A stretch of DNA of 64,000 bases. Source: Somniosus microcephalus. Taxonomy: Eukaryota. The position numbers were made by a program, and so were the translations under genes. How positions within the stretch are numbered: the first letter of the stretch is position 1; each line of letters opens with the position of its first letter. Below, piece by piece: positions 29,773 to 62,100 of the stretch. A model generated the notes under the pieces. The model ran no database searches. It saw only the letters and a list, made by a program, of their open reading frames with translations, and had not been told where the DNA came from. The DNA lies in the NCBI GenBank assembly GCA_052327205.1, contig CM126214.1, positions 46,252,001 through 46,316,000 of the forward strand, written 5' to 3'.

Positions 29773-30511
29773 TTGGGTGATTTCAAATGGCACCTCCCAC
29801 GCTTTTTCTTCTTCCCCAATGGAATAAAATGGCGCCTCCCGTGCTTTTCCTTTCTCCCCAATGGAATAAAATGGTGCCTCCTGCGCTTTTCCTTCTTCCC
29901 TTGCTGCCACGCTGCTCCTAGCGTTCTACAGGGTAATGGCGGCGACCCGCGGCTTCGGCGCATCTCACTTTTCCTTCCCCTCGTTTATTTTCTCTCCGCT
30001 GCCCGGTTCTTGAGCACCGACCGCGTCCTGTGCACGCCACCCTCTCTCTCTCTCTTTCCTCCCGGCGACGCTGCGCGGCCCCTTTTGCAGAGCCGCTCGA
30101 TCGAGCTCGAGCCCGCCGCAGTCCGGAAGGGTCAGCGCACTACCTGCTACCAGCACGATTTGCTGGAGCACCTTGACTGGGGAGCCAAGCTCAGCTCTCC
30201 ACAGCCTCTCCCGCAACTCTCCGAACACCGATGGATCCTTGGGCGGTTGCACGCGGTCGACTCCCGTTGCTCCGACTTCGACCTCCAAGAAACTTCTTCT
30301 CAGGGAAAGGTCCCCGTGAGGTATGCAGTACTGCAGGTGAATTCGAACTTGCTCGTCGCCACTGTAAAGTTCGCGCCTCAATAATACATGGACTTCGGGA
30401 AAACAATTAAACAGGTATTTTACTGAAAAGAGGGTACTCTTTTAGTTTGGACCCAAAAAAAAAAACAAATTGGACTGTAAATGAACAAAAGTTCAACTAA
30501 AACTTAACAAA

Positions 30512-33500
30512 TCAAATTAAAATTTGGTTTTCCAGGTTGATGATGCACTCCAGTCCCCGCGGCACCCACCGGTCGCGGAAATACTCAAGCGCACCGGCGG
30601 ACACTGCGTGCTCCATCTCCAGGGCCACCCGGGCGCGAACATGGCCGCGGAAGAGAGGCAGGCAATCTGGCTGGACGACCCCCTCGACCGCCCGCTGCCT
30701 GGACCAATTGATGGCTCTCTTGGCCAGGCCCAGGAGCAGTCCCACGAGGAGGTCCTCCAACCTGCCCGTTCCCCTCCGCACTGGGTGACCGTAGATCAAG
30801 AGCGTGGGACTGAAGTGCAACCAAAAATCGAGGAGCAGCCCCTTCAAGTAGTGAAAGAGGGGTTGCAACCTCTCACACTTGACATTAACGTGAAACACGG
30901 ACTCCTCCAGGCCGCAAAAAATGCAGGCGGCCTGGGAGTCCGTGAACCTACTTAAAACCATATTGCACGGGACCGCTCCGTGCAACACCCTCCAGGCCAA
31001 GTCCCCGATGGAACAAGGGAGGACTCCCGCATAGAGAGGCCACCATTGGGGACCTTCGCCTCCGCCGGTCGGCAAGACGCCACGTCAAGGCGTGTCCGGA
31101 CGGCAGACGAAGATGGCAAAGTGGAGAGTATGCAGGAGCAGCCCGTACAGGAAACCCCTCCGCGCGGAATGAAAAGGCACGGAGGGTATTTCCTCGAGAC
31201 GGCTCAAGTTGTGAGGCGCCGGTTCCCGAGGGGAGTTTCGGGGCCGGGCGCCGATGAGGAATTCCGTCCGAACGGGGGTAAGCATTGACGGGATCGCCCC
31301 ACGTGCTTGAGCCGCCTCGATACATCTAGTGGAGTCGGGGCCCAGTGCCACTTTCACCGACTCGATGGCTTCGACCGCGAGCCGGACGTTAGCCCAGGAC
31401 AGGCACCGCGCCAGCTCCTCCGGCGCCATCCAGCCCGCTCCTCCACCATCGGGCAGGTCCCCGACTCTGGTCACCTTGCCAGGCACAGCCCTACTCTCCG
31501 CCAGCCGCCCAAACCCGCGGTCGTGGAGGTGCGGATTCCTGAGCAGCGGCTCCCGAAGGAGAGCCGCCGCTCCTGACGGGGGAGAGCTCTGCCTGGAAGC
31601 GACGTAGTTCCAAACCCATAGCAGTTCCTGGTAGAAGACAGGCAGCTCCCGCAGGCCGGCACGCCTGCCGCCCGCTTTCACAAACAGGAGCTGCGTGTCG
31701 TAATTGAGGCCGTGCAGCTGGCGGAAGAAATACGTCGCCAGCGCACACCATCTCGGAGGATTCTCGACGTACAGGTATCTCTGCTGTGTCTGAAGACAGA
31801 AAGTCACAGCCTGGGGGCGAAGGCACACCAGCGCCTGACCGCCCTCCCTAAGCGGGAGACACAGAACCGCGGCAGAGACCCAGTGCTTCCTTTCATCCCA
31901 GAAGAAGTCGATGAGCTTCTTCTGCATCTTGGCGACAAACGCAGGGGGAGGGATCAAAGTGACCAACCGGTACCACAACATGGCGGCCACCAGCTGGTTT
32001 ATGACCAGCGCTCGACCCCTGTAGGACAACACTCGGAGCAGTCCTGTCCAGCGTCCTAGGCGAGCGGTGACTGGCCTCCAGCTCTTGCCAGTTGGCCGGC
32101 CAGGCGTCCTCGGCAGGGCTAAGGTAGACTCCCAAATAGAGGAGGTGCGTGGTGCTCCAGGCAAAAGGCCTGAACTCCCTCGGCAGGGAGTCCACCCACC
32201 ACTGACCCACCAGGAGTCCGGAACATTTCTCCCAGTTGATCTTGGCGGAGGATGCGTCCGAGTAAATTTGCTGGCATTCCCGCATCCTCCGCAAGTCAGC
32301 GGGATCCGTGACCGTGAGGAGCACGTCATCGGCGTAAGCCGAGAGGACCACCTCTACACCAAGCCCTTGCAGAGCCAGTCCCGTCAACCTCTTCCGCAAG
32401 AGGCGCAGGAAAGGCTCCACGCAAACGGCGTATAACTGACCGGACATGGGGCATCCCTGATGCACCCCCCTCCCGAAGCAAAGGGGCGCCGTCAAGGACC
32501 CGTTAACTTTAATCAGACACTCCGCGGCGGCGTACAGAAGTCGGATCCGGGCGGCGAAATGCGTCCCGAACCTGAATGCGCGCAGAGTCCCGAAGAGATA
32601 CTCGTGATCCACCCTGTCGAACGCCTTCTCCTGATCCAGGGAAATGAAGGGACCGACAGACCAGCCCTCTGGGAGTGGTGGACCAGGTCCCGGACCAGAT
32701 GGATGTTATCGTGGATGGTCCGGCCCGGGACCGTGTAGGACTGGTCGGGGTGGATCATGTGGGCCAGCACGGTGCCAAGGCGAGCAGACATGGCCCTGGC
32801 AAAGATTTTATAGTCCGTGCTGAGGAGGGAGACCGGGTGCCAGTTCTTAAGGAGGCGGAGATCACCCTTCTTAGGCAGCAGGACAATGACTGCCCTGCGC
32901 CAAGAGATGGGCATCTCCCCGGTCGCCAAACTTTCCCTCAGGACCCGCGTGTAGTCGCCCCCCAAGACGTCCGAGAACGCCCTTTGGAACTCCACGGTCA
33001 GCCCGTCCAGCCCCGGGGACTTTCCCCTGGAGAGCTGGTGGAGGGCGCCGGTCAGCTCCGCCAAGCTTAGCGGAGCGTCCAATTTTTCGGCGCCCTCCGG
33101 GCTGACCTTCAGCAGGTCCTCCCATGAAACTCTGCGCGCATCCTCCGTGGATGGATCCGGAGAGAACAGAGCCCCGTAATAGGCGCGGGTCTCCGCGCTG
33201 ATTCCCTCCGGATCCGAGACCAGAGATCCGTCGTCGGCCAGCAGCCCCAAGAGCTGCTTACGGACCCCCCGTCTTTTTTCCAGCGAGTAGAAGAAGGGGG
33301 AGCCGCGGTCCAGGTCCCGCAGGAGCTGGATCCGCGACCTCACGTACGCGCCTCGGGACCCGACGAGCTGCAGGTCCTTCAGCACGCCCTTCTTCTCTTC
33401 GTACACCTTCCGCAGGGCCGGGTCCTCGGCGACCTGACCGAGACGGGACTCCAGGTCGAGCACCTCCTTCTCCAACCGCCCGACCCAGGCCTCCCGCCTC

Positions 33501-34410
33501 TTGGTCGACCCCTTCGCGTACTCCTGACAGAAGAGATGGACGTGAGCCTTGCCCACGTCCCACCATAGTCTCAAGGAGGGGAAGCCCCCCCGCTTCCTTC
33601 TCCAGTCGGCCCAGAACCGACGAAACGAATCCCGGAACCGCGCATCCTCCAGCAGCAGGTTGTTAAAATGCCAGTACGCGGACCCCCCCCACGCGCGCGC
33701 AGCGGAGCGAGCTCCGCCCACACCAGGTGGTGGTCCGTGCACGGCACCGGCCGCATGGAAGCCGCCGGAACGCAGGAGACGTACGCCCGGGAAATGTAGA
33801 GGCGGTTGATTCTGGACCTTCCTCCCCCAGACCTCACGCTAGTGAAGGCGCTGGAGTCAGGGTGGAGATTTCGCCAGACGTCCACCAAGTCGAAGGACCC
33901 GACCAGGTCCCTCAACTTCTCCATCGCCGCCGGGCTTCGCGGGGGACCCGAACGGTCCTTCGCCTCGAGGGTGCAGTTAAAATCCCCCCCAAGGATGACG
34001 CACTCACCCACGTCGACGGAGCACAAAAGAGCGGACACTTCTTCGAAGAAGCGCACTTGCTGCGCACCGGTCTGAGGGGCGTACACGTTCACTAGATGGA
34101 GCGGCACGCCCTTTAGGCGAACAGTGACCTGGAGCAAGCGGCCCGGCATGTGCTGCTTGACCCCCAAGATCTCCGGCTGAAAATGCGGGGCCAGCAAGAT
34201 AGCCACCCCACTGGAATTGTTGGAGAGGTGATTCATGCTGACCCCTCCTTGCCACTCCAGGAGCCACGTGGCTTCGTCTCCCAGAACGGTGTGGGTTTCT
34301 TGCAGGAAGCACACCGCATACTTCCCGTCCCGAAGGACCGAGAAGTTATTGAATCTGCGGCGCGCCTCCCTGCTGCCGGTGATGTTGAGGCTGGCTATGG
34401 TTATCTTCAT
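30512..34410 (-). pseudogene. Tx1 ORF2: APE endonuclease, RT and C-terminal zinc finger; several frameshifts
   Basis: IASLNITG..LQETH, GGDFNC, TDHH, KSPGLDGL, QGCPMS, AYADD, CIFCGLEESVFH..C. Confidence 0.93.
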
Positions 34411-34441
34411 GTCAGAAGCATAGTGCAACTGCTACCTACAC

Positions 34442-36532
34442 CTAACGGGGGGAGGGAGCGCAGCCGCTGGTCAGCCGCCACTTCCTCAACAGCCCAGTGA
34501 GGAACGTTCTGAGCCGACGCAGCAACAGCGGGTTCACGCCCTCGTCCGCGCCCATGATCTTAACGGCGGCATGGACGGACACGATGGGCAGCGCCAGCTC
34601 CGACCACCTGTCGAGGGCCAGCCGGATCTTATTCTGCCGACCCAGGCACATGGCCATAAAGTCCCGGAGTTCCCTTACGGGAATGAGGGGCGACTCGGCG
34701 AGGGGTACGAGGTCATCCATCGCCTCGTCGGCGCTGGAGTCCAAATCGTCCTCCGTGCCCATCACCGAGTCCCCATCCTCCTCCAGGGGGTCGTCACCAG
34801 CGGCCGACCCGTCCGTCGCGCAGTGCACAGCGAATGGCTCGGCCGCAACAGCCATCCCCGCCTCCGCCCGGATCCCACCCCCAGGATCGGTGGCAGAGGA
34901 TTCCTCCCTGGGCTCCTGTAGGGGCGCCGGGCCAGAAGATGGCGGCGGTTCAGAGCGCCCCTCCACCCCAGACACTGGAACGACCGGAGAAACCAGGGAG
35001 AGAACAATTCCCAGCTCCTCCAGTACGTCCGGCACCAGAGATGCAGCCAGGGGGCCATCCTCCTCCCCGCCACCAACCTCCGACCCAGCGGGTGGGGTGT
35101 CTTGAATTAAAACCTTGACCAGGTCGAGCAGCCCCTGGGAGATGTCCGGGTCACATTGGGCGAGCTCATTTTCTTCAAACTCGCCCGACCCGGACCCCAG
35201 GCCGCCCGACCCGGCGAGGGGTAACGGCACAGATAAAATGACAATTTCCGCGGGTTGATCCGTGACACCCCCCACGGGCAGGGTCTCATCCCCATCCCTG
35301 GGAGGCATGTGCCGGACAGACACATCTGCCTCAGCCTCCCGAGGGACAGGCGACCCCTGCCGATCGCTGGTGATGATGACAGCGGGCGGGGGGGCTGCCC
35401 GCGGCGGGCGATGACTCCCCCTGCTCGGAGGGACCATCCTCCTCCCGGTCCTCCTCCTCTTCCAGGGGGTCGCGCCTTCTTTTTAGCGTGGAGGGAGTGA
35501 GGGAGACCTCCATGTCTGCAGAGGCTCCCTCCTCTGCTCCCTCCGGCGGAGCAGGTTTGTCGGGTTCCTCGGGTCCGAGCCCGGCCGCAGGTAATGGCGG
35601 CCCCTCCCGCCCTCGTCTGCCCCGACCAACTCCGCGAGGAGCGCGGGTGTCAGGGGCTCTAATTTAAGGGCCAGCCCTCTACGGGGGACCCGCCCTGAGG
35701 TGTTTCGTTTTTCGCCGCGCCTTCCTTCCGCCCGGATGCGCTCCCTCCCCCCGCCGGAGGCCTTGGTGGCATCGGCCTCCGACGTCTACCGCGCATTGGT
35801 TGTATCGGACGCGCGGCCAGACCCGGAGGGAGGAGCAGCGGCGGTGCCAACCTCGGCCGCACTAGATGACCTGGCGGCCTTGGAGGCGGGGCAGTTTTTC
35901 CTGATGTGCCCCGCCTCCTTGCAGGCGTGGCACCGCACACCGTCCGACATCCAGAAGACGCGATAGGCTGTCCCCTCGTGGAGGACGACGAAAGCCTCAT
36001 CGGTGTCCTCCTCCCGCGCCAGCTGAATAAAGAGCTGGCGCCGGAAGGAGAAGACGTGGCGAAGGCTGGCTTCCCGGAAGCCGAGCGGGATGGGTGTGAT
36101 CCCCGACCTCACCTCCCCAAGTTGGCGTAAGTGGGGGAGGAGGAGCTCACCAGGAACAAAGGGCGGGATGTTAGAAATAACCACCCTCTGCGCGGTGGCC
36201 TCAAGGGGGTCCACCGGCAGGAAGGTCCCGCCCACGGTGAGCCCCTTGGCGATGGCCAGGGACACTGCCCGCTCCGACCCCAGGAAGAACACAGCCTTCC
36301 CGTACATTTTTGAGGCGGCGAGAATGGCAGAAGGGCCGACAACCCCAGCCATAGCCTTTACACACGCCTCAATTGTCATTGTGGGGTGGGTGTAGCTCTT
36401 CACCCCAAGCTTTTTGGTTATTAGTGAGAAAGGTGACGGGGCAGCAGAAGCAGCGGGAGCAGCCGTGGCTGTGGCTGCCACCACCGCATATGACCTAGCT
36501 GGCCCCGCCACCGGCGATGAAGCAGACGCCAT
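34442..36532 (-). pseudogene. Tx1 ORF1 (RRM-like region, CCHC knuckle CHACKEAGHIRKNC, low-complexity C-terminus), broken
   Basis: ORFs 35786-36532 and 34442-35437; SYAVVAA, AASKMYGKAVFFL, VVISNIPPF motifs. Confidence 0.85.
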
Positions 36533-52893: not shown

Positions 52894-52979
52894 TCCCTTA
52901 TCTACCATGTTCGTTAACTCCTCAATAAATTCAACTAGGTTCGTTAGACATGACGTACCCTTTGCAAATCCAAGCTGGC

Positions 52980-55900
52980 TGTTAAGTCTGTGAATTATTT
53001 AGTTAATTAAAACACAGACTAATGAGGAACAATAAAAACAGGTCTTTACTGGTTGGAGGTAGGGACTATACTGAATACAAGATTACTGCACAGTGCTTAT
53101 ATACCGGTGTGTTCACCCCCGGTATTACGTCTACAGCAGCCTGAGAAAGTAGTACATCTCTTAAGGTGGAACAGGCTTAAGCTCTCTTAAGGTGGAACAG
53201 GTTACATACACAACACTCCTCCCTTCTTAGCTTTATAGTCATCCCCCTCATTTAACATAACGTAATAACATATATACATATATAACTTCATGTTTAACGT
53301 AACATATCACAGATTCAGTCTCTGCGGAAAACAGTTCACAGATTCAATCTCTGTGGTGTAGTCGGTTCACGTTACTCATTCAATAGTCCTTTCATGGATT
53401 TAACAGCTTGAACTTCCGAACTGATTTGGCTCCATTCGGAGGGACCACGTGTGTGATCTGGTAGAGGTGACAATGGTTCAGATGGGTCATCTTCTGTTTT
53501 TACTTTTCCTTTTCTGCTTCTTGGAGACTCTCTGGGCTCCATTGTCAGCTGCCACAGCTGCCAGCTGCATGCGCAGTTCCTCCTTCTCTTCCTCCTGTTT
53601 CCGTCGTCGAGCCAGCTTCTCCTGATGTTCCGTAGACTTTTGGTGCTCCTCCATGATTTCTGCACTTTGGGAGTCGAAGTTACAAGCTGGGCAGGACAGG
53701 ACATCGTAATATTCAGTGTCGTCCACCAGGTCATGGTAATATTCGGTGTCGTCCTGAGCTAGACCAGTGAGAGGGTCGTCTATTTCCTCCATACCCAGCT
53801 GGACGTTAGCCAGCTCTTGTTCCAAATCCAGACATCTTTCCTGAAGAGACTTCTTCATGTGTACCTCTGCATCCAGCTTTTTCTGGGCTTTCAGCAAGTC
53901 GTTTACTAGTGACCTCATTTGTGATTTTAATACTTCAACTTCCTTTGGAGATTGATTGATCGGACTATGCAATCCCTCTACCGGAGCAGCTGTTTCAGCG
54001 GTCTGTTGTTCTACATTGACGTGAGTCAGCGTACTTTTGGCATCCAATGGCTGCTCTGTTGCAGTCGTTTCAGTCTGTGTCGTCACATCAGCCATCTCAA
54101 TGACTTTTGAGAGCTCCGAACCCTTTTCCTTTGAAGATCGCAGCTCGTGTTCAAGTTTTTCCCATTTCAGAGTCTTGTCCCTCAGCATATGAAGGAGTTG
54201 GCTGACCGTTAACTCTTCTGACACCAGATTATGGCACGCACCTTCAGAACCTGAATCAGCTTTGATTCGTTCGGCCTCCTCGCGCAGATGGTTGGTGTGC
54301 TCCTGCTCCATTTTCTCCATCAGTTGCTTCTGTTGACTTTCCAGATTCTCCCACTCTGTAACAAAGAACTTTTTTATTTCATTCATCTCTTGCTCAAAAC
54401 GGCGAATCATTTGTTCTAATTGCTGTTGTAGTTTGAAATGGAGTTGAGTTCGAGCCCAGTGTCCCTCAAAAATGTGCATATCAGTAGACTTGACAGACTC
54501 AGAATTCTCTGTTAAACTATGTTGTTGTTGCTCAGTGGAATTCTGTGCTGAAACTTTGTCTTTTGCACATGGGTTGGTCTTACCATCATCAGTTCTAGAG
54601 TCTGGGCTGATTATCTGCACCGAGTTCTCACTCTTTATGGCTTTTAGCGAATGCCAGTCCATATTTATGTTTCTAAACCACTCCCGGCCTAGTAGTGGTG
54701 GACCTCCCTCCGGTAGCACATATAAGTCCATTATTTGACTTCCTTCGCCCTTGTTGGCCACTGCAACCTTTATTGTCCCGATGGGGTACACTCTCTGCCC
54801 CGTGTAGGTTGTCAATATAATCTCCGTATCCTGTAGGGGAATATGTTGGAATAACCGACTGTAATCTTTCTTATTCATGACCGACAATGCCGATCCAGTG
54901 TCCAATTCCATTTTTACTTGGACTCCTTCTATCTGAAGAGTAACCCAAATTGTCTGGAGGTCTGCACCCTTACCAACGTTGAGTACCCTTAAGCTAGCCA
55001 GTTCAATACTGCTTGCGTCTGAATCGGACTCCTGTTCGGCCACCTTGTGTACCTTTGCGTATTTCCCTTGCGGTGACTTCTTGTTGCTGGTCTTCTTCGC
55101 TGACCTGCATACTCTAGCTATATGTCCAAGCCTACCACAAGTTCTACATTCTTGGTTTTTAAACCAACACTGGTTCTGATCATGCGTTGTCTTTCCACAA
55201 CGATAACATTTGCCAGAACTCACACCCAATTTGTGTGCACTGAGCTCCGGTGACCGTAGCTGCATTACTGCCGTGCCTCTCGCTGCGGCTTCGTGTGCTG
55301 CTGCCATAGTGACCGCCTTCTCAAGCGTCAGCTCATTCTCCTCGAGCAGTCGCTTTTGTGTATCCTGTTTAAATAAACCACACACAAATTTGTCTCGAAG
55401 TGCCTCTGTCAGTCCCGTTCCAAACTGGCAATATTTCGCTAATTTACGCAATTCCAGCAAATATTCAGCATTGCTTTCATGCTGTAGCTGCCCTCTGTCG
55501 TAAAATTTAAATCGTTCCGCTAGCATCAGCGGCGTGGGGTTTAGATGATCTTTCAGGACAGTAACAATCTCATCGAACGTCTTATCCGCCGGTTCATCTG
55601 GTGATAACAGGTGTTTCAATTGCCCGTATGTCTTCGCACCCATTAAATTTAATAATGTTAGAGCTTTATCTTGGTCACGAATTTTATTGGCCTTACAATA
55701 ATTTTTTACTCTTTCAACATATATGGCCCAATCTTCGAGGTCACTATCAAAGGTGCTAATATTCCCATGTTTAGGCATTGTAGATTTGCAATTTCTCAGA
55801 TTTTATTTTCTTTACTTGTTATCAAAGATGGCGGCTTCCCGCTCTTGCCGTCGTCCTCCGCCCACAAAATGGCGGTTTTCCCGTGCTTGGCGGTCTTCAC

Positions 55901-56464
55901 CCGTCCCCCGACGCCGTCTCCCTTCAGCCCCCGAGTGCGGCCCTTATCTTCGCCGTGATCGCCCGAGTGCGGCCCTTATCAGCGGATGCGATCGATGGCC
56001 CGGCTGCGCCTCGCACTTGAAAGCGGCCCGGCCCTTATCTGCCGATCGCTATCGCCCTGTACCTCTCTCTTCCCCAGTCCTGTCTTCTACTCCGGTTCAC
56101 AAGCTGATGGAGGCTTCAGGGTCCTAATGCCTGTCGCTTCCAGTGGGGTGGTGAGTGGTGAGGTTTGAAACCTCTCTTCAACCGCCGTGGAATAACTGCC
56201 GCAGGGTAAGATCCTGACTCGTCGCCAGTGTTAAGTCTGTGAATTATTTAGTTAATTAAAACACAGACTAATGAGGAACAATAAAAACAGGTCTTTACTG
56301 GTTGGAGGTAGGGACTATACTGAATACAAGATTACTGCACAGTGCTTATATACCGGTGTGTTCACCCCCGGTATTACGTCTACAGCAGCCTGAGAAAGTA
56401 GTACATCTCTTAAGGTGGAACAGGCTTAAGCTCTCTTAAGGTGGAACAGGTTACATACACAACA
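52980..56464 (-). mobile_element. young non-autonomous Gypsy-type LTR element carrying captured host coding fragments
   Basis: LTRs 52980-53215 and 56229-56464 (236 bp, TG..CA, identical by eye); TSD CTGGC; PBS TGGCGACGAG at 56218-56227; PPT at 53216-53230; no RT/RNase H/IN. Confidence 0.95.
53487..55778 (-). CDS. 763-aa chimeric polyprotein: Gag (two CCHC) + aspartic protease + STK10/SLK-like coiled coil + optineurin-like coiled coil + DNAJC21-like C2H2 zinc finger
   Basis: Uninterrupted [39 protein letters not shown]; [36 protein letters not shown]; [22 protein letters not shown]; [16 protein letters not shown]. Host assignments are from recall. Confidence 0.85.
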
Positions 56465-57009
56465 CTGGCTCTCTCTGATCAGCTCATATTTGTCCAAATA
56501 CTCAGTCACTCTGCCCCAATAACAGATTCTAGTAACTTCCCCACAACTAATATGCCTATAATTTTCTAATTTATCTCTCCTACCTTTCTTAAATAATGGA
56601 GAGATATTGGCAATTTTCCAATCCAAGGGGAGATTCCTGAATCGAGAGTGTTTTGCAGGATCATGACTAACTCATCAACAATTTCCTCACCTACTTCTTT
56701 TAATGCCCTGGGGTGGAAACCATCGGGTCTATTTTTAATCTCATTAGTTTCTCCATTACCACTATTTTTACTTATATTGAATTTAGTTAGATACGCTAGA
56801 TGCAGGAGTACAGTACACAGTTATTTACAAACAACAATGTTTGAAAGCCAAAAAAAGTCTAATATCTGAGGTGAGCCAGCAATCGAAGCCAGTGACAAAA
56901 GTGGAATGTGTCAGTCGGCGTGCTTAGACCTTTTTGAATGGTAGAGAATCCTGAGGCTTATCAACTTTTTCTTTATTAAAATACCTTGTGCAGTAATGCA
57001 ACTGAGGTT

Positions 57010-58700: not shown

Positions 58701-59160
58701 AGACTGCACCCGATATTGGTCCCCCCTTTGAGTGTAATGCCACTGAGCTAGGCCTTTAAGACTTGAATTAGTCTTGTTCAAGAGCTGATACACCATCCCA
58801 GGACATTCTGGCCCACTTTAATCACCATCTCTATGTGTATATATATGTATAATCATAACTGTTAACTAAAATGTTTATTTTAAAATTTTATCTTTGTTGA
58901 ATTCCTTTGCTTATCAAACTGAGAAATGGTGGGGAATGGGACACTTCATTTTTCCATCCAATGTCACTGTTACATTCAGGTCTTTGTCTGTATAGCCTGT
59001 ACTTAATTTATTCATTTATAATAGTTCTGCAATATTAATTGCAGCATTTGACTCAATATTAAGCCAGCAGAGATAAAAGCAAACTGGTTGCCATGGTAAT
59101 TTGAATCTCAGGATTTTATATGACCCGGAATTGAGCTTCTGAACACATGCCCGCTTCAAC

Positions 59161-62100
59161 ACTGAATGCACGTAGCATTCGTAACAAAATAGATGAGTTA
59201 ATGGCACAAATAACTACATATGGGTATGATCTTGTGGCCATTACAGAAACATGGCTGCAGGGTGACAATGCCTGGGAATTAAACATACCAGGTTATTTAA
59301 CGATCAGGAAGGACAGGCAGGAAGGCAGGGGAGGTGGGGTGGCTATGTTAATAAAGGAAGGAATCACTGTAATACAGAGAAATGATATTCGGTCAAAAGA
59401 TCAGGAGAATGAAACAGTTTGGGTGGAGGTAAGGAATAATAAGGGGAAAAAAACACTAGTGGGCGTAGTCTATAGGCCTCCGAACTGTGGCAACTCTGTT
59501 GGATGGAGTATCAATCAGGAAATAGTTGAGGCTTGTAATAAGGGAACATCTATAATTATGGGGGATTTTAACTATCATATTAATTGGACAAATCAAATTG
59601 GGCAGGGCTGCCTTGAGGATGAGTTCATTGAGTGTATTAGGGATGGGTTTCTTGAGCAGTATGTAACTGAACCGACCAGGGGGCAGGCAACCTTAGATCT
59701 GGTCCTGTGTAACGAGACAGGATTAATTAAAAATGTCCTAGTAAAGGATCCCCTTGGAATGAGTGACCATAACATGGTTGAATTCCATATTCAATTAGAG
59801 GATGAGAAGGTTGGATCTCAAACAAGCGTGCTAAGCTTGAATAAAGGAGACTATGAAGGTATGAGAGCGGAATTGAGTAGAGTGGATTGGGAAAATAGAT
59901 TAAAGGGTAAGATGATACATGATCAGTGGTGTACATTTAAGGAGTTATTTTAAAACTTCCAAAAAATATATATTCCACTGAGAAGAAAAGGGTGTAAAAG
60001 AAAAGACAGCCATCCGTGGCTAAGTAAAGAAATTAAGGATAGTATTCGACTAAAAACAAGGGCATATAAGGTAGCCAAATCTAGTGGGAGGATAGAGGAT
60101 TGGGAAAACTTTAAAAGACAGCAAAAAATAACAAAAAGATTGATTAAGAAAGGGAAGATAGATTATGAAAGTAAATTAGCAAAAAATATAAAAACAGATA
60201 GTAAGAGTTTTTATAGTTATATAAAAAGAAAAAGGGTGGCTAAAGTAAATGTTGGTCCCTTAGAGGATGAGACCGGGAAATTAATGGTGGGAAATATGGA
60301 GATGGCAAAAACACTGAATGAATATTTTACATCAGTCTTTACAGTAGAAGACACTAAGAATATCCCAACACTGGACAAACAGGGGGCTAAAGGGGGGGAG
60401 GAGCTAAACATGATCAAAATCACTAAGGAAGTGGTACTCGGTAAAATAATGGGACTCAAGGCGGATAAATCACCTGGACCTGATGGCTTACATCCTAGGG
60501 TCTTGAGGGAAGTGGCGGTAGGGATTGTGGATGCATTGGTAATAATTTTCCAAAACTCCCTGTACTCGGCAATGGTCCCGGCAGACTGGAAAACTGCTAA
60601 TGTAACACCCTTATTTAAAAAGGGCAGTAGACAGGAGGCTGGAAACTATAGACCAGTTAGCCTAACATCTGTGGTAGGTAAAATTTTGGAGTCCATTATT
60701 AAGGAGACAGTAACAGGGCATTTGGATAATCATAATTTAATAGGACAAAGTCAGCATGGTTTTATGAAGGGGAAGTCATGTTTGACAAATTTGCTGGAGT
60801 TCTTTGAGGAAGTAACATATAGGGTGGATAAAGGGGAACCAGTGGACGTAGTGTATTTAGACTTCCAAAAGGCATTTGACAAGGTGCCACACAAAAGATT
60901 ATTGCTTAAGATAAAAAATCACGGGATTGGGGGTAATATTCTGGCATGGATAGGGGATTGGCTATCTAACAGAAGGCAGAGAGTTGGGATAAATGGTTCA
61001 TTCCCAGACTGGCAATCAGTAACTAGTGGTGTTCCGCAGGGGTCAGTGCTGAGTCCCCAACTCTTTACAATCTATATTAATGATTTGGAGGAGGGGACCG
61101 AGTGTAACATATCAAAGTTTGCAGATGATACTAAGATGGGGGGGAAAGTAGTGAGTGAGGAGGACATAAAAAACCTTCAAGGGGACATAGACAGGCTAAG
61201 TAAGTGGGCAGAGATTTGGCAGATGGAATACAATACTGGAAAGTGTGAGGTTATGCACTTTGGCAGGAAAAATCGTAGAGCAAGTTATTATCTTAATAGC
61301 AAGAAACTGGAAAGTACTGAAGTACAAAGGGATCTGGGGGTCCTGGTGCACGAAACTCAAAAGGTTAGTATGCAGGTGCAGCAAGTGATTAAGAAGGCCA
61401 ATGGAATGTTGGCTTTCATTGCCAGGGGGATAGAATATAAAAATAGGGAGGTATTGCTTCAGTTGTACAAGGTATTGGTGAGACCGCACCTGGAATACTG
61501 CGTACAGTTTTGGTGTCCATACTTAAGAAAGGACATACTTGCTCTCGAGTCAGTACAAAGAAGGTTCACTCGGTTAATCCCGGGGATGAGGGGATGGACA
61601 TATGAGGAGAGGTTGAGTAGATTGGGACTCTACTCATTGGAGTTCAGAAGAATGAGAGGCGATCTTATTGAAACATATAAGATTGTGAAGGGGTTGGATT
61701 GGGTGGATGCAGGGAAGATGTTCCCGATGATGGGTGAAACTAGAACTAGGGGGCATAATCTTAGAATAAGGGGCTGCTCTTTCAAAACTGAGATGAGGAG
61801 GAACTACTTCACTCAGAGGGTGGTAGGTCCATGGAATATGCTGCCCCAAAAAACTGTAGAAGCTACATCATTACATAAATTTAAAACAGAAATAGACAGT
61901 TTCCTAGAAGTAAAGGGAATTAAGGGTTACGGGGAGTGGGCAGGAATTTGGACATGAGTCTAGGTTCGGATCGGTCATGGCCCTGTGGGTAGCGGAGCGG
62001 GCCCAGGCGCCGTGTAGCCTGATCCTGCTCCTATTTCGTGTGTCTAATTCTGTTAGATGCAGGAGATGGCTCTGTGATAGTGGATTGGCGGTTAGGATCA

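Follow-up and report, generated by a model that had tools for sequence, protein, structure and literature searches.

A young non-autonomous Gypsy element of Somniosus microcephalus with spliced pieces of host STK10, OPTN, and a zinc-finger gene in place of pol

The window analyzed here is a stretch of 64,000 nucleotides of the Somniosus microcephalus genome (GenBank assembly GCA_052327205.1, contig CM126214.1, positions 46,252,001 to 46,316,000 of the forward strand) and contains a young non-autonomous Gypsy LTR retrotransposon of 3.5 kb on the minus strand. The explanation that we prefer, with a probability of roughly two in three, is that of a recent non-autonomous element whose pol was replaced in frame by spliced sequence of host STK10, host OPTN, and a host finger gene, and whose cargo is kept mainly for an open, translated frame. 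The cargo was likely acquired by template switching of reverse transcriptase (RT), and the OPTN piece is likely mostly readable filler and not an anti-host weapon.

Architecture of the element

The element is bounded by identical LTRs and a 5-bp target-site duplication (TSD). Its ORF (55778–53487, minus strand) runs uninterrupted over 763 codons and encloses the OPTN-like peptide that a sequence-only reading had pointed out. As judged by Pfam profiles, the ORF features Gag with two CCHC knuckles, an aspartyl protease, a PKK coiled coil (42.9 bits, above the cut-off), and a weak jaz-type finger; RT, RNase H, and integrase were not found in it by the same profiles. The parts are, in window coordinates:

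52975–52979, no strand: left copy of the 5-bp TSD CTGGC (sequence)
52980–53215, minus: 3' LTR, 236 bp, TG...CA, identical to the 5' LTR (sequence comparison)
53216–53228, minus: polypurine tract (sequence)
53375–53491, minus: STK10 exon 8–9 remnant, the putative circle part 3' of the back-splice joint; out of frame beyond the stop, running to the integrase-tail joint
53487–55778, minus: ORF of 763 codons, Gag–protease–STK10–OPTN–zinc finger–basic tail
53496–53777, minus: third cargo, spliced piece of a host C2H2-finger gene on C1, with acidic stretch, finger, and basic tail
53625–53693, minus: jaz-type C2H2 finger (Pfam; copy alignment)
53782–54228, minus: OPTN coding exons 5 (part), 6, 7, and 8 (part), spliced (host exon comparison)
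54069–54089, minus: TQT motif (DVTTQTE), OPTN-derived
54222–54264, minus: OPTN coding exon 3 stub, the LIR stretch being deleted directly after it
54256–54467, minus: STK10 exons 11–12 (PKK coiled coil), spliced
54457–54634, minus: STK10 exon 9, linker part
54660–54944, minus: aspartyl protease, DTG motif intact
55104–55217, minus: two Gag CCHC zinc knuckles
56218–56227, minus: primer-binding site TGGCGACGAG (sequence)
56229–56464, minus: 5' LTR
56465–56469, no strand: right copy of the 5-bp TSD CTGGC (sequence)

The paired TG...CA LTRs, the primer-binding site, the polypurine tract, the TSD, and a parent with the domain order PR-RT-RH-IN are hallmarks of Ty3/Gypsy. The element is a putative member of the Mag clade of Gypsy, with which its 5-bp TSD, two CCHC knuckles, and single gag-pol frame would agree. 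Copy counts and ORF content show that it multiplies despite having no RT or integrase of its own. The sequence-only reading had described the OPTN segment as fused to a retroelement Gag; the two do share one ORF, but the protease and STK10-derived pieces, absent from that reading, lie between them. No tRNA was found within or around the element, and neither a PDB sequence search with the cargo nor a homologue search with the basic tail gave a match.

Read together, the flanks (52894–52979 and 56465 onward) look like a single LINE remnant with an interruption, and the element hence probably landed in an older repeat. Elsewhere in the window, a LINE endonuclease–RT frame at 59135–61957 (plus strand), presumably CR1-like as recognized from its translation, is split by one stop, and positions 30000–36000 form a GC-rich island (60–65% versus about 45%).

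Origin of the OPTN piece

The OPTN-derived stretch occupies 53782–54264 (minus strand), in frame behind Gag–protease. Its peptide is 60% identical to shark OPTN over 156 aa (E 2e-50), 56–74% identical to 12 shark and ray OPTNs, and 38% identical to that of gar, and the ORF has its nearest protein matches in shark OPTN (up to 70%) and shark STK10 (70–80%). The whale-shark query is itself OPTN according to its matches to human OPTN structures. The best match is hence shark OPTN and not an unrelated coiled coil, the outcome that the sequence-only reading had set against its own proposal.

On the DNA level, the OPTN piece corresponds to five exons of the only OPTN gene in the genome, at 77–94% identity and with the introns gone. 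The host gene was mapped by tblastn to 14 coding exons in 200 kb of C17; a genome search with the OPTN N-terminus matches this one gene and one weaker locus. The window copy starts with the exon 3 stub, jumps to exon 5, and ends inside exon 8. Older element copies carry exons 3 (part) to 8 without introns at 96–99% identity, LIR included; exon 6 reaches only 86–87% in these copies because of a small deletion. Since host exons are joined without introns, OPTN was captured by the retroelement from spliced RNA, with microhomology at the joints, and since older lineages retain the LIR, its loss is secondary in the window lineage. The shark OPTN alignment and intron mapping proposed in the earlier reading thus confirm its identification of the peptide at 53782–54228 (minus strand) as captured OPTN. 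Exon mapping and orthologue alignment likewise bear out its statement that the TBK1-binding N-terminus and the UBAN are missing and the LIR is left out; the C-terminal finger is also absent from the window copy. Stretches in other copies that were considered as the TBK1-binding N-terminus were rejected: They belong to the STK10 coil, and the only matches of the N-terminus are the host gene and the one weaker locus.

Permuted STK10 cargo and its likely circular template

With the part of STK10 missing from the window as query, 89 of 91 scored sequences matched, nearly all of them element copies. Six loci with STK10 as the only cargo were read, and all six feature the same permuted order: Gag–protease is followed by STK10 from mid exon 9, then exons 10–12, then exon 8, and finally the start of exon 9. 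The exon 12 donor is joined exactly to the exon 8 acceptor in four of the six under a strict match, and a 16-letter pattern of this back-splice joint occurs 968 times in the genome versus 8 times in the control. STK10 exons 8–12 total 1245 nt, a multiple of three; the cargo length equals 1245 nt plus a 14-nt overlap, and the cargo starts and ends at one exon 9 site. At the entry joint with pol (the RT start), 11 nt overlap with the STK10 site, and at the exit joint, GATGAG is common to the STK10 site and the integrase tail. The other cargo joints share 4–9 nt. An automated microhomology measure confirmed two of seven joints (11 and 4 nt), the other five being read by eye where the measure failed or later substitutions broke them. 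The window copy keeps only the permuted order, its back-splice joint having been overwritten by OPTN.

The STK10 cargo thus likely derives from a circular RNA of exons 8–12 that was copied for one full turn, as read from these genomic joints. RT would have switched from pol onto the 1245-nt STK10 circle, copied one round, and jumped back, at the same site, into the integrase tail; one switch onto the circle, one turn, and one switch back account for the joint, the length, and the shared entry and exit site together. A linear origin of the permuted order—by two captures, trans-splicing, or genomic tandem duplication of exons 8–12—draws on the family's repeated switching onto host RNA, on other causes that non-colinear joints can have (Dong et al., PMC4897178), and on the putative circle being read here from genomic joints and not from host RNA. 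We consider it quite improbable, because the joint lies exactly on canonical donor and acceptor sites, because the cargo begins and stops at a single exon 9 site, and because 170 kb of the host STK10 gene hold one copy of each exon. A five-exon STK10 circle would comprise 415 codons, with its frame unshifted across the back-splice joint; host STK10 exon 10 has a GC splice donor (G000:C8:167193683).

Zinc finger and further inserts

The third cargo is a jaz-type finger inserted into STK10 exon 8. Its donor exons lie on C1 (4.79 Mb) with 98–99% identity to the least changed copies. A second C2H2 exon follows downstream; neither the cysteine-bearing exon nor the upstream exons were found in 120 kb of C1. 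We presume the donor to be DNAJC21-like, and Atlas zuotin-domain clusters score 0.84–0.88 for it, which serves as a lead only. A PF21884 locus on C17 was rejected as donor. The finger has the same four zinc ligands in every one of 72 copies, whereas its core has gone from basic to acidic, with variation at 17 of 25 positions; the associated P of about 0.006 is post hoc and comes with 30 loci picked by finger score.

Other lineages bear further inserts. A 217-aa myosin-tail coiled coil (PF01576), presumably CGNL1-like, sits in frame within the STK10 coil of L119–L128, L131, and L190 (e.g., L190:1671–2321, minus strand), a lineage that retains the back-splice joint and the finger. Several I-set Ig domains of titin/obscurin-like type, presumably OBSL1-like, are in frame in L233 (2125–2658), L236, and L244, the last with an open frame of 1098 codons. 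L282 (2284–3159) has two extra coiled-coil inserts upstream of the OPTN core, presumably EVI5-like and RAI14/UACA-like, and a third, divergent Gag; a Pfam search with this extra cargo matched no family. The cargo is interchangeable across lineages, the myosin-tail coil and the Ig repeats being in frame as well.

Relatives, copy number, and age

A pattern search for the autonomous parent gave 22 matches, and five of the first ten read continue into RT. This parent is 97% identical to the STK10-only copies and has the domain order PR-RT-RH-IN (L240). Autonomous elements with a window-like protease gave 10 matches; six were read, at 86–88% identity, five of them with YLDD in frame. Autonomous copies hence amount to tens versus thousands of cargo joints, all pattern counts being floors. 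The commonest exact joint is STK10–finger with 7818 matches, followed by STK10–OPTN with 3712 and the window-type LIR-deletion joint with 1686, each with none in the control; the OPTN exon 5 pattern has 5774 matches.

The back-splice region gave way to OPTN, with 9 and 7 nucleotides shared at the ends of the latter, and shorter forms were created at 8- and 4-nt overlaps. The window capsid forms a long separate branch (0.29, support 100/100), whereas the OPTN core of the window lies only about 0.1 from LIR-bearing lineages, in midpoint-rooted trees of 32 and 20 chosen rows. From this disagreement of the Gag and OPTN trees, we infer that the window lineage recombined onto another Gag/LTR chassis. 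The later switches would then comprise deletion of part of STK10, with OPTN exons 3–8 and the finger patched in, and, in the window lineage, loss of the LIR and the move to the different chassis.

All 40 scored copies stand at no less than 99%. In the window family, 18 of 20 LTR pairs were measurable, with identities of 98.7–100%, ten pairs at 100%, and a median of 100%, and the full ORF of 762–771 codons is present in 16 of 20 copies; these 20 are biased toward young copies because they are the best matches to the window. The STK10-only pairs (18 of 20 measurable) have a median of 98.5%, which agrees with the inferred order in which STK10-only elements are older. In two RNA runs labeled with the species that holds the element, reads fall in all 30 bins. 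One run has its first mates mainly on the plus strand over the ORF (e.g., 1034 versus 45), which fits sense RNA, and the other is without strand bias. These reads describe the family, possibly that of a related species, and not transcription or translation of the window copy.

Selection on Gag and cargo

Uncorrected NG86 ratios of 0.3–0.5 for the cargo overstate constraint; hence, controls matched to the mutation spectrum were used, with nulls that preserve the observed spectrum. Gag–protease is under purifying selection, with P = 0.0003 in three of four pairwise comparisons and 0.058 in the remaining one. For the OPTN piece, change is close to neutral: Host and window differ by 32 amino-acid changes versus 36.2 expected neutrally (P = 0.10). 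For STK10, the corresponding numbers are 27 versus 34.1 (P = 0.011), the host branch being included.

Variants were also pooled over 54–124 copies per piece. Cargo variants common to at least three copies have an omega-like value of 0.76 (P = 0.004) and include 2 stops versus 10.3 expected (P = 0.002), in copies that are related and partly found by protein and profile searches and are thus biased toward open frames. Single-copy cargo variants stand at 1.04, the Gag capsid is at 0.43, and the OPTN core alone gives P = 0.057. Beyond its ligands, the finger evolves as fast as neutral sequence or faster. Selection is thus visible for the open frame, for Gag, and for the four finger ligands. The OPTN coil and the TQT motif probably ride along under weak constraint, and the finger, which alone shows selection at the level of the fold, may have a small role.

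The TQT motif

The sequence-only reading had taken DVTTQTE (54069–54089) for an LC8-type motif. The heptad fits the LC8 consensus KXTQTX loosely, as this is given in the accessible part of PMC5643739; TQT is present in 10 of 13 OPTN orthologues, gar included, and is therefore inherited from OPTN, and it shows no measurable conservation. The central Gln is kept in 88 of 91 copies and replaced by Pro in three. This constancy is unremarkable because 68% of OPTN-core positions are invariant and 32% vary, three consecutive invariant positions having a probability of about 0.3; in the second OPTN helix, 17 of 38 positions vary. Host OPTN exon 6 (G000:C17:85885363–85885533) reads TPT where most element copies read TQT, and the three Pro-bearing copies may reflect later exchange with host RNA. 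A single-sequence structure model (pTM 0.26) predicts long helices and a disordered gap after TQT, the motif being placed at a helix end next to a low-confidence stretch. No title or abstract linking OPTN to LC8 was found in the literature covered, which takes in few subscription journals. For fish OPTN itself, a candidate LC8 site emerges in the TQT of its variable linker.

Alternative readings of the cargo

For the preferred reading, the mechanism would be that the element makes its own Gag–protease fusion, which, by analogy with mouse IAP 1-delta-1, would favor its own RNA in cis, while RT and integrase would be borrowed from rare autonomous relatives; any filler that preserves an open frame would be tolerated behind Gag–protease. 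Against this reading, the cargo is not fully neutral (0.76), the finger ligands are invariant, and the OPTN core with TQT persists in all of the 20 extra copies that were sampled by way of the finger joint, two of which retain the LIR. Moreover, the ORF of the window lineage stops after the finger and the STK10 tail is no longer in frame; an open frame up to the very last cargo piece is hence dispensable. The main rival is a selected accessory protein—a protease-released product of coil, acidic stretch, finger, and basic tail that would aid packaging, assembly, or nuclear entry and let its lineages outnumber the autonomous parents. The fixed ligands amid a turning-over finger core, the finger joint as the commonest of all, the weak purifying signal across the whole cargo, the long helices predicted at pTM 0.26, and family RNA that is abundant and, in the one stranded run, sense-biased are consistent with it. 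The finger outside its ligands, however, changes at least as fast as expected under neutrality, lineages without finger or without OPTN amplified too, 30 of the analyzed loci were selected by finger score, and the protein product is a predicted one. We hold an accessory role to be possible but doubtful. Tentative, too, is its fuller version: The element would have built its own accessory protein from host RNAs, by one circle turn, swapped-in coils, trimming of OPTN to a putative LC8-binding core, and a finger turned from basic to acidic, and this module would let Pol-less lineages outnumber autonomous parents about a hundredfold. If true, the module would represent an early stage of something like the accessory genes of complex retroviruses.

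The earlier reading had gone further for OPTN, proposing a dominant negative that pairs with host OPTN in autophagy and interferon control, with TQT recruiting LC8 and dynein. Its premise, the OPTN capture, stands. In its favor are the kept core without LIR, N-terminus, and UBAN, the near-constant central Gln and loose consensus fit, the trimming of OPTN to this same core in the youngest large lineages, the TPT of the host gene in the assembly, and the persistence of core and TQT in all 20 extra copies sampled through the finger joint. Yet the piece changes near neutrally, TQT is ancestral and its invariance expected by chance at about 0.3, the second helix is heavily changed, and the LIR loss is one among many microhomology deletions; sister lineages without OPTN amplified, 968 of their joints being the one that OPTN replaces. 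The adaptive reading of the OPTN piece is therefore weak, and we regard such interference as unlikely. To a domesticated host gene we give next to no credence: The ORF is intact, but identical LTRs with a TSD, the 99% or more reached by all 40 scored copies, and 1686 window-type joints describe a mobile family.

Comparison with known systems

LTR-mediated capture, several parent genes, and circRNA pseudogenes are already known, and the interest of the shark element lies less in OPTN than in the probable capture of a circle and the serial assembly in frame. Among the titles and abstracts covered, which take in few subscription journals, none describes the shark family or a circle captured in a replicating LTR element. 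LTR-mediated retrocopies of metazoans, as described in the accessible part of Tan et al. 2016 (PMC5131818), replace internal ORF parts by spliced host RNA, with microsimilarity at the joints and several parental genes. The shark element shares these features as well as secondary retroposition and, often, the frame of the parent gene. It differs by thousands versus few copies, by a cargo in frame with a purifying-selected Gag–protease, and by the survival of serial intermediates; the term circRNA does not occur in the accessible main text of that paper.

Among circRNA-derived pseudogenes, e.g., that of mouse circRFWD2, 33 have been described and their mechanism called mysterious (Dong et al. 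2016, PMC4897178). They have in common with the shark family a non-colinear back-splice joint, multicopy genomic sequence, and LTR association. In the shark family, unlike these pseudogenes, both switch points with pol are visible, the putative circle is copied for exactly one turn, and the result is a coding, replicating element. The family would thus be a genomic record of a circular RNA written back to DNA—RT onto the circle, one round, and back at the same site—a step that the paper on circRNA-derived pseudogenes leaves open.

Maize Bs1 is an LTR element with pieces from three host genes as a chimeric ORF, 1–5 copies, and a proposed service to the host, according to the accessible parts of PMC5131818 and PMC13317346. 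The shark family likewise has pieces from three host genes in a chimeric ORF; unlike Bs1, for which these parts mention no circular RNA, it is still amplifying. Mouse IAP 1-delta-1 is non-autonomous, and its in-frame Gag fusion acts in cis and outpaces the autonomous form, as described in the accessible part of PMC6466679. The shark element is non-autonomous with an in-frame Gag fusion as well, and its cis action is assumed by analogy; the IAP fusion is the product of a gag-pol deletion, whereas the shark filler is host-derived. Compared with these systems, the shark family presents serial in-frame gene capture in a vertebrate, in thousands of copies and with preserved intermediates, which offers a way to test whether captured cargo persists because of its open frame or because of what it does.
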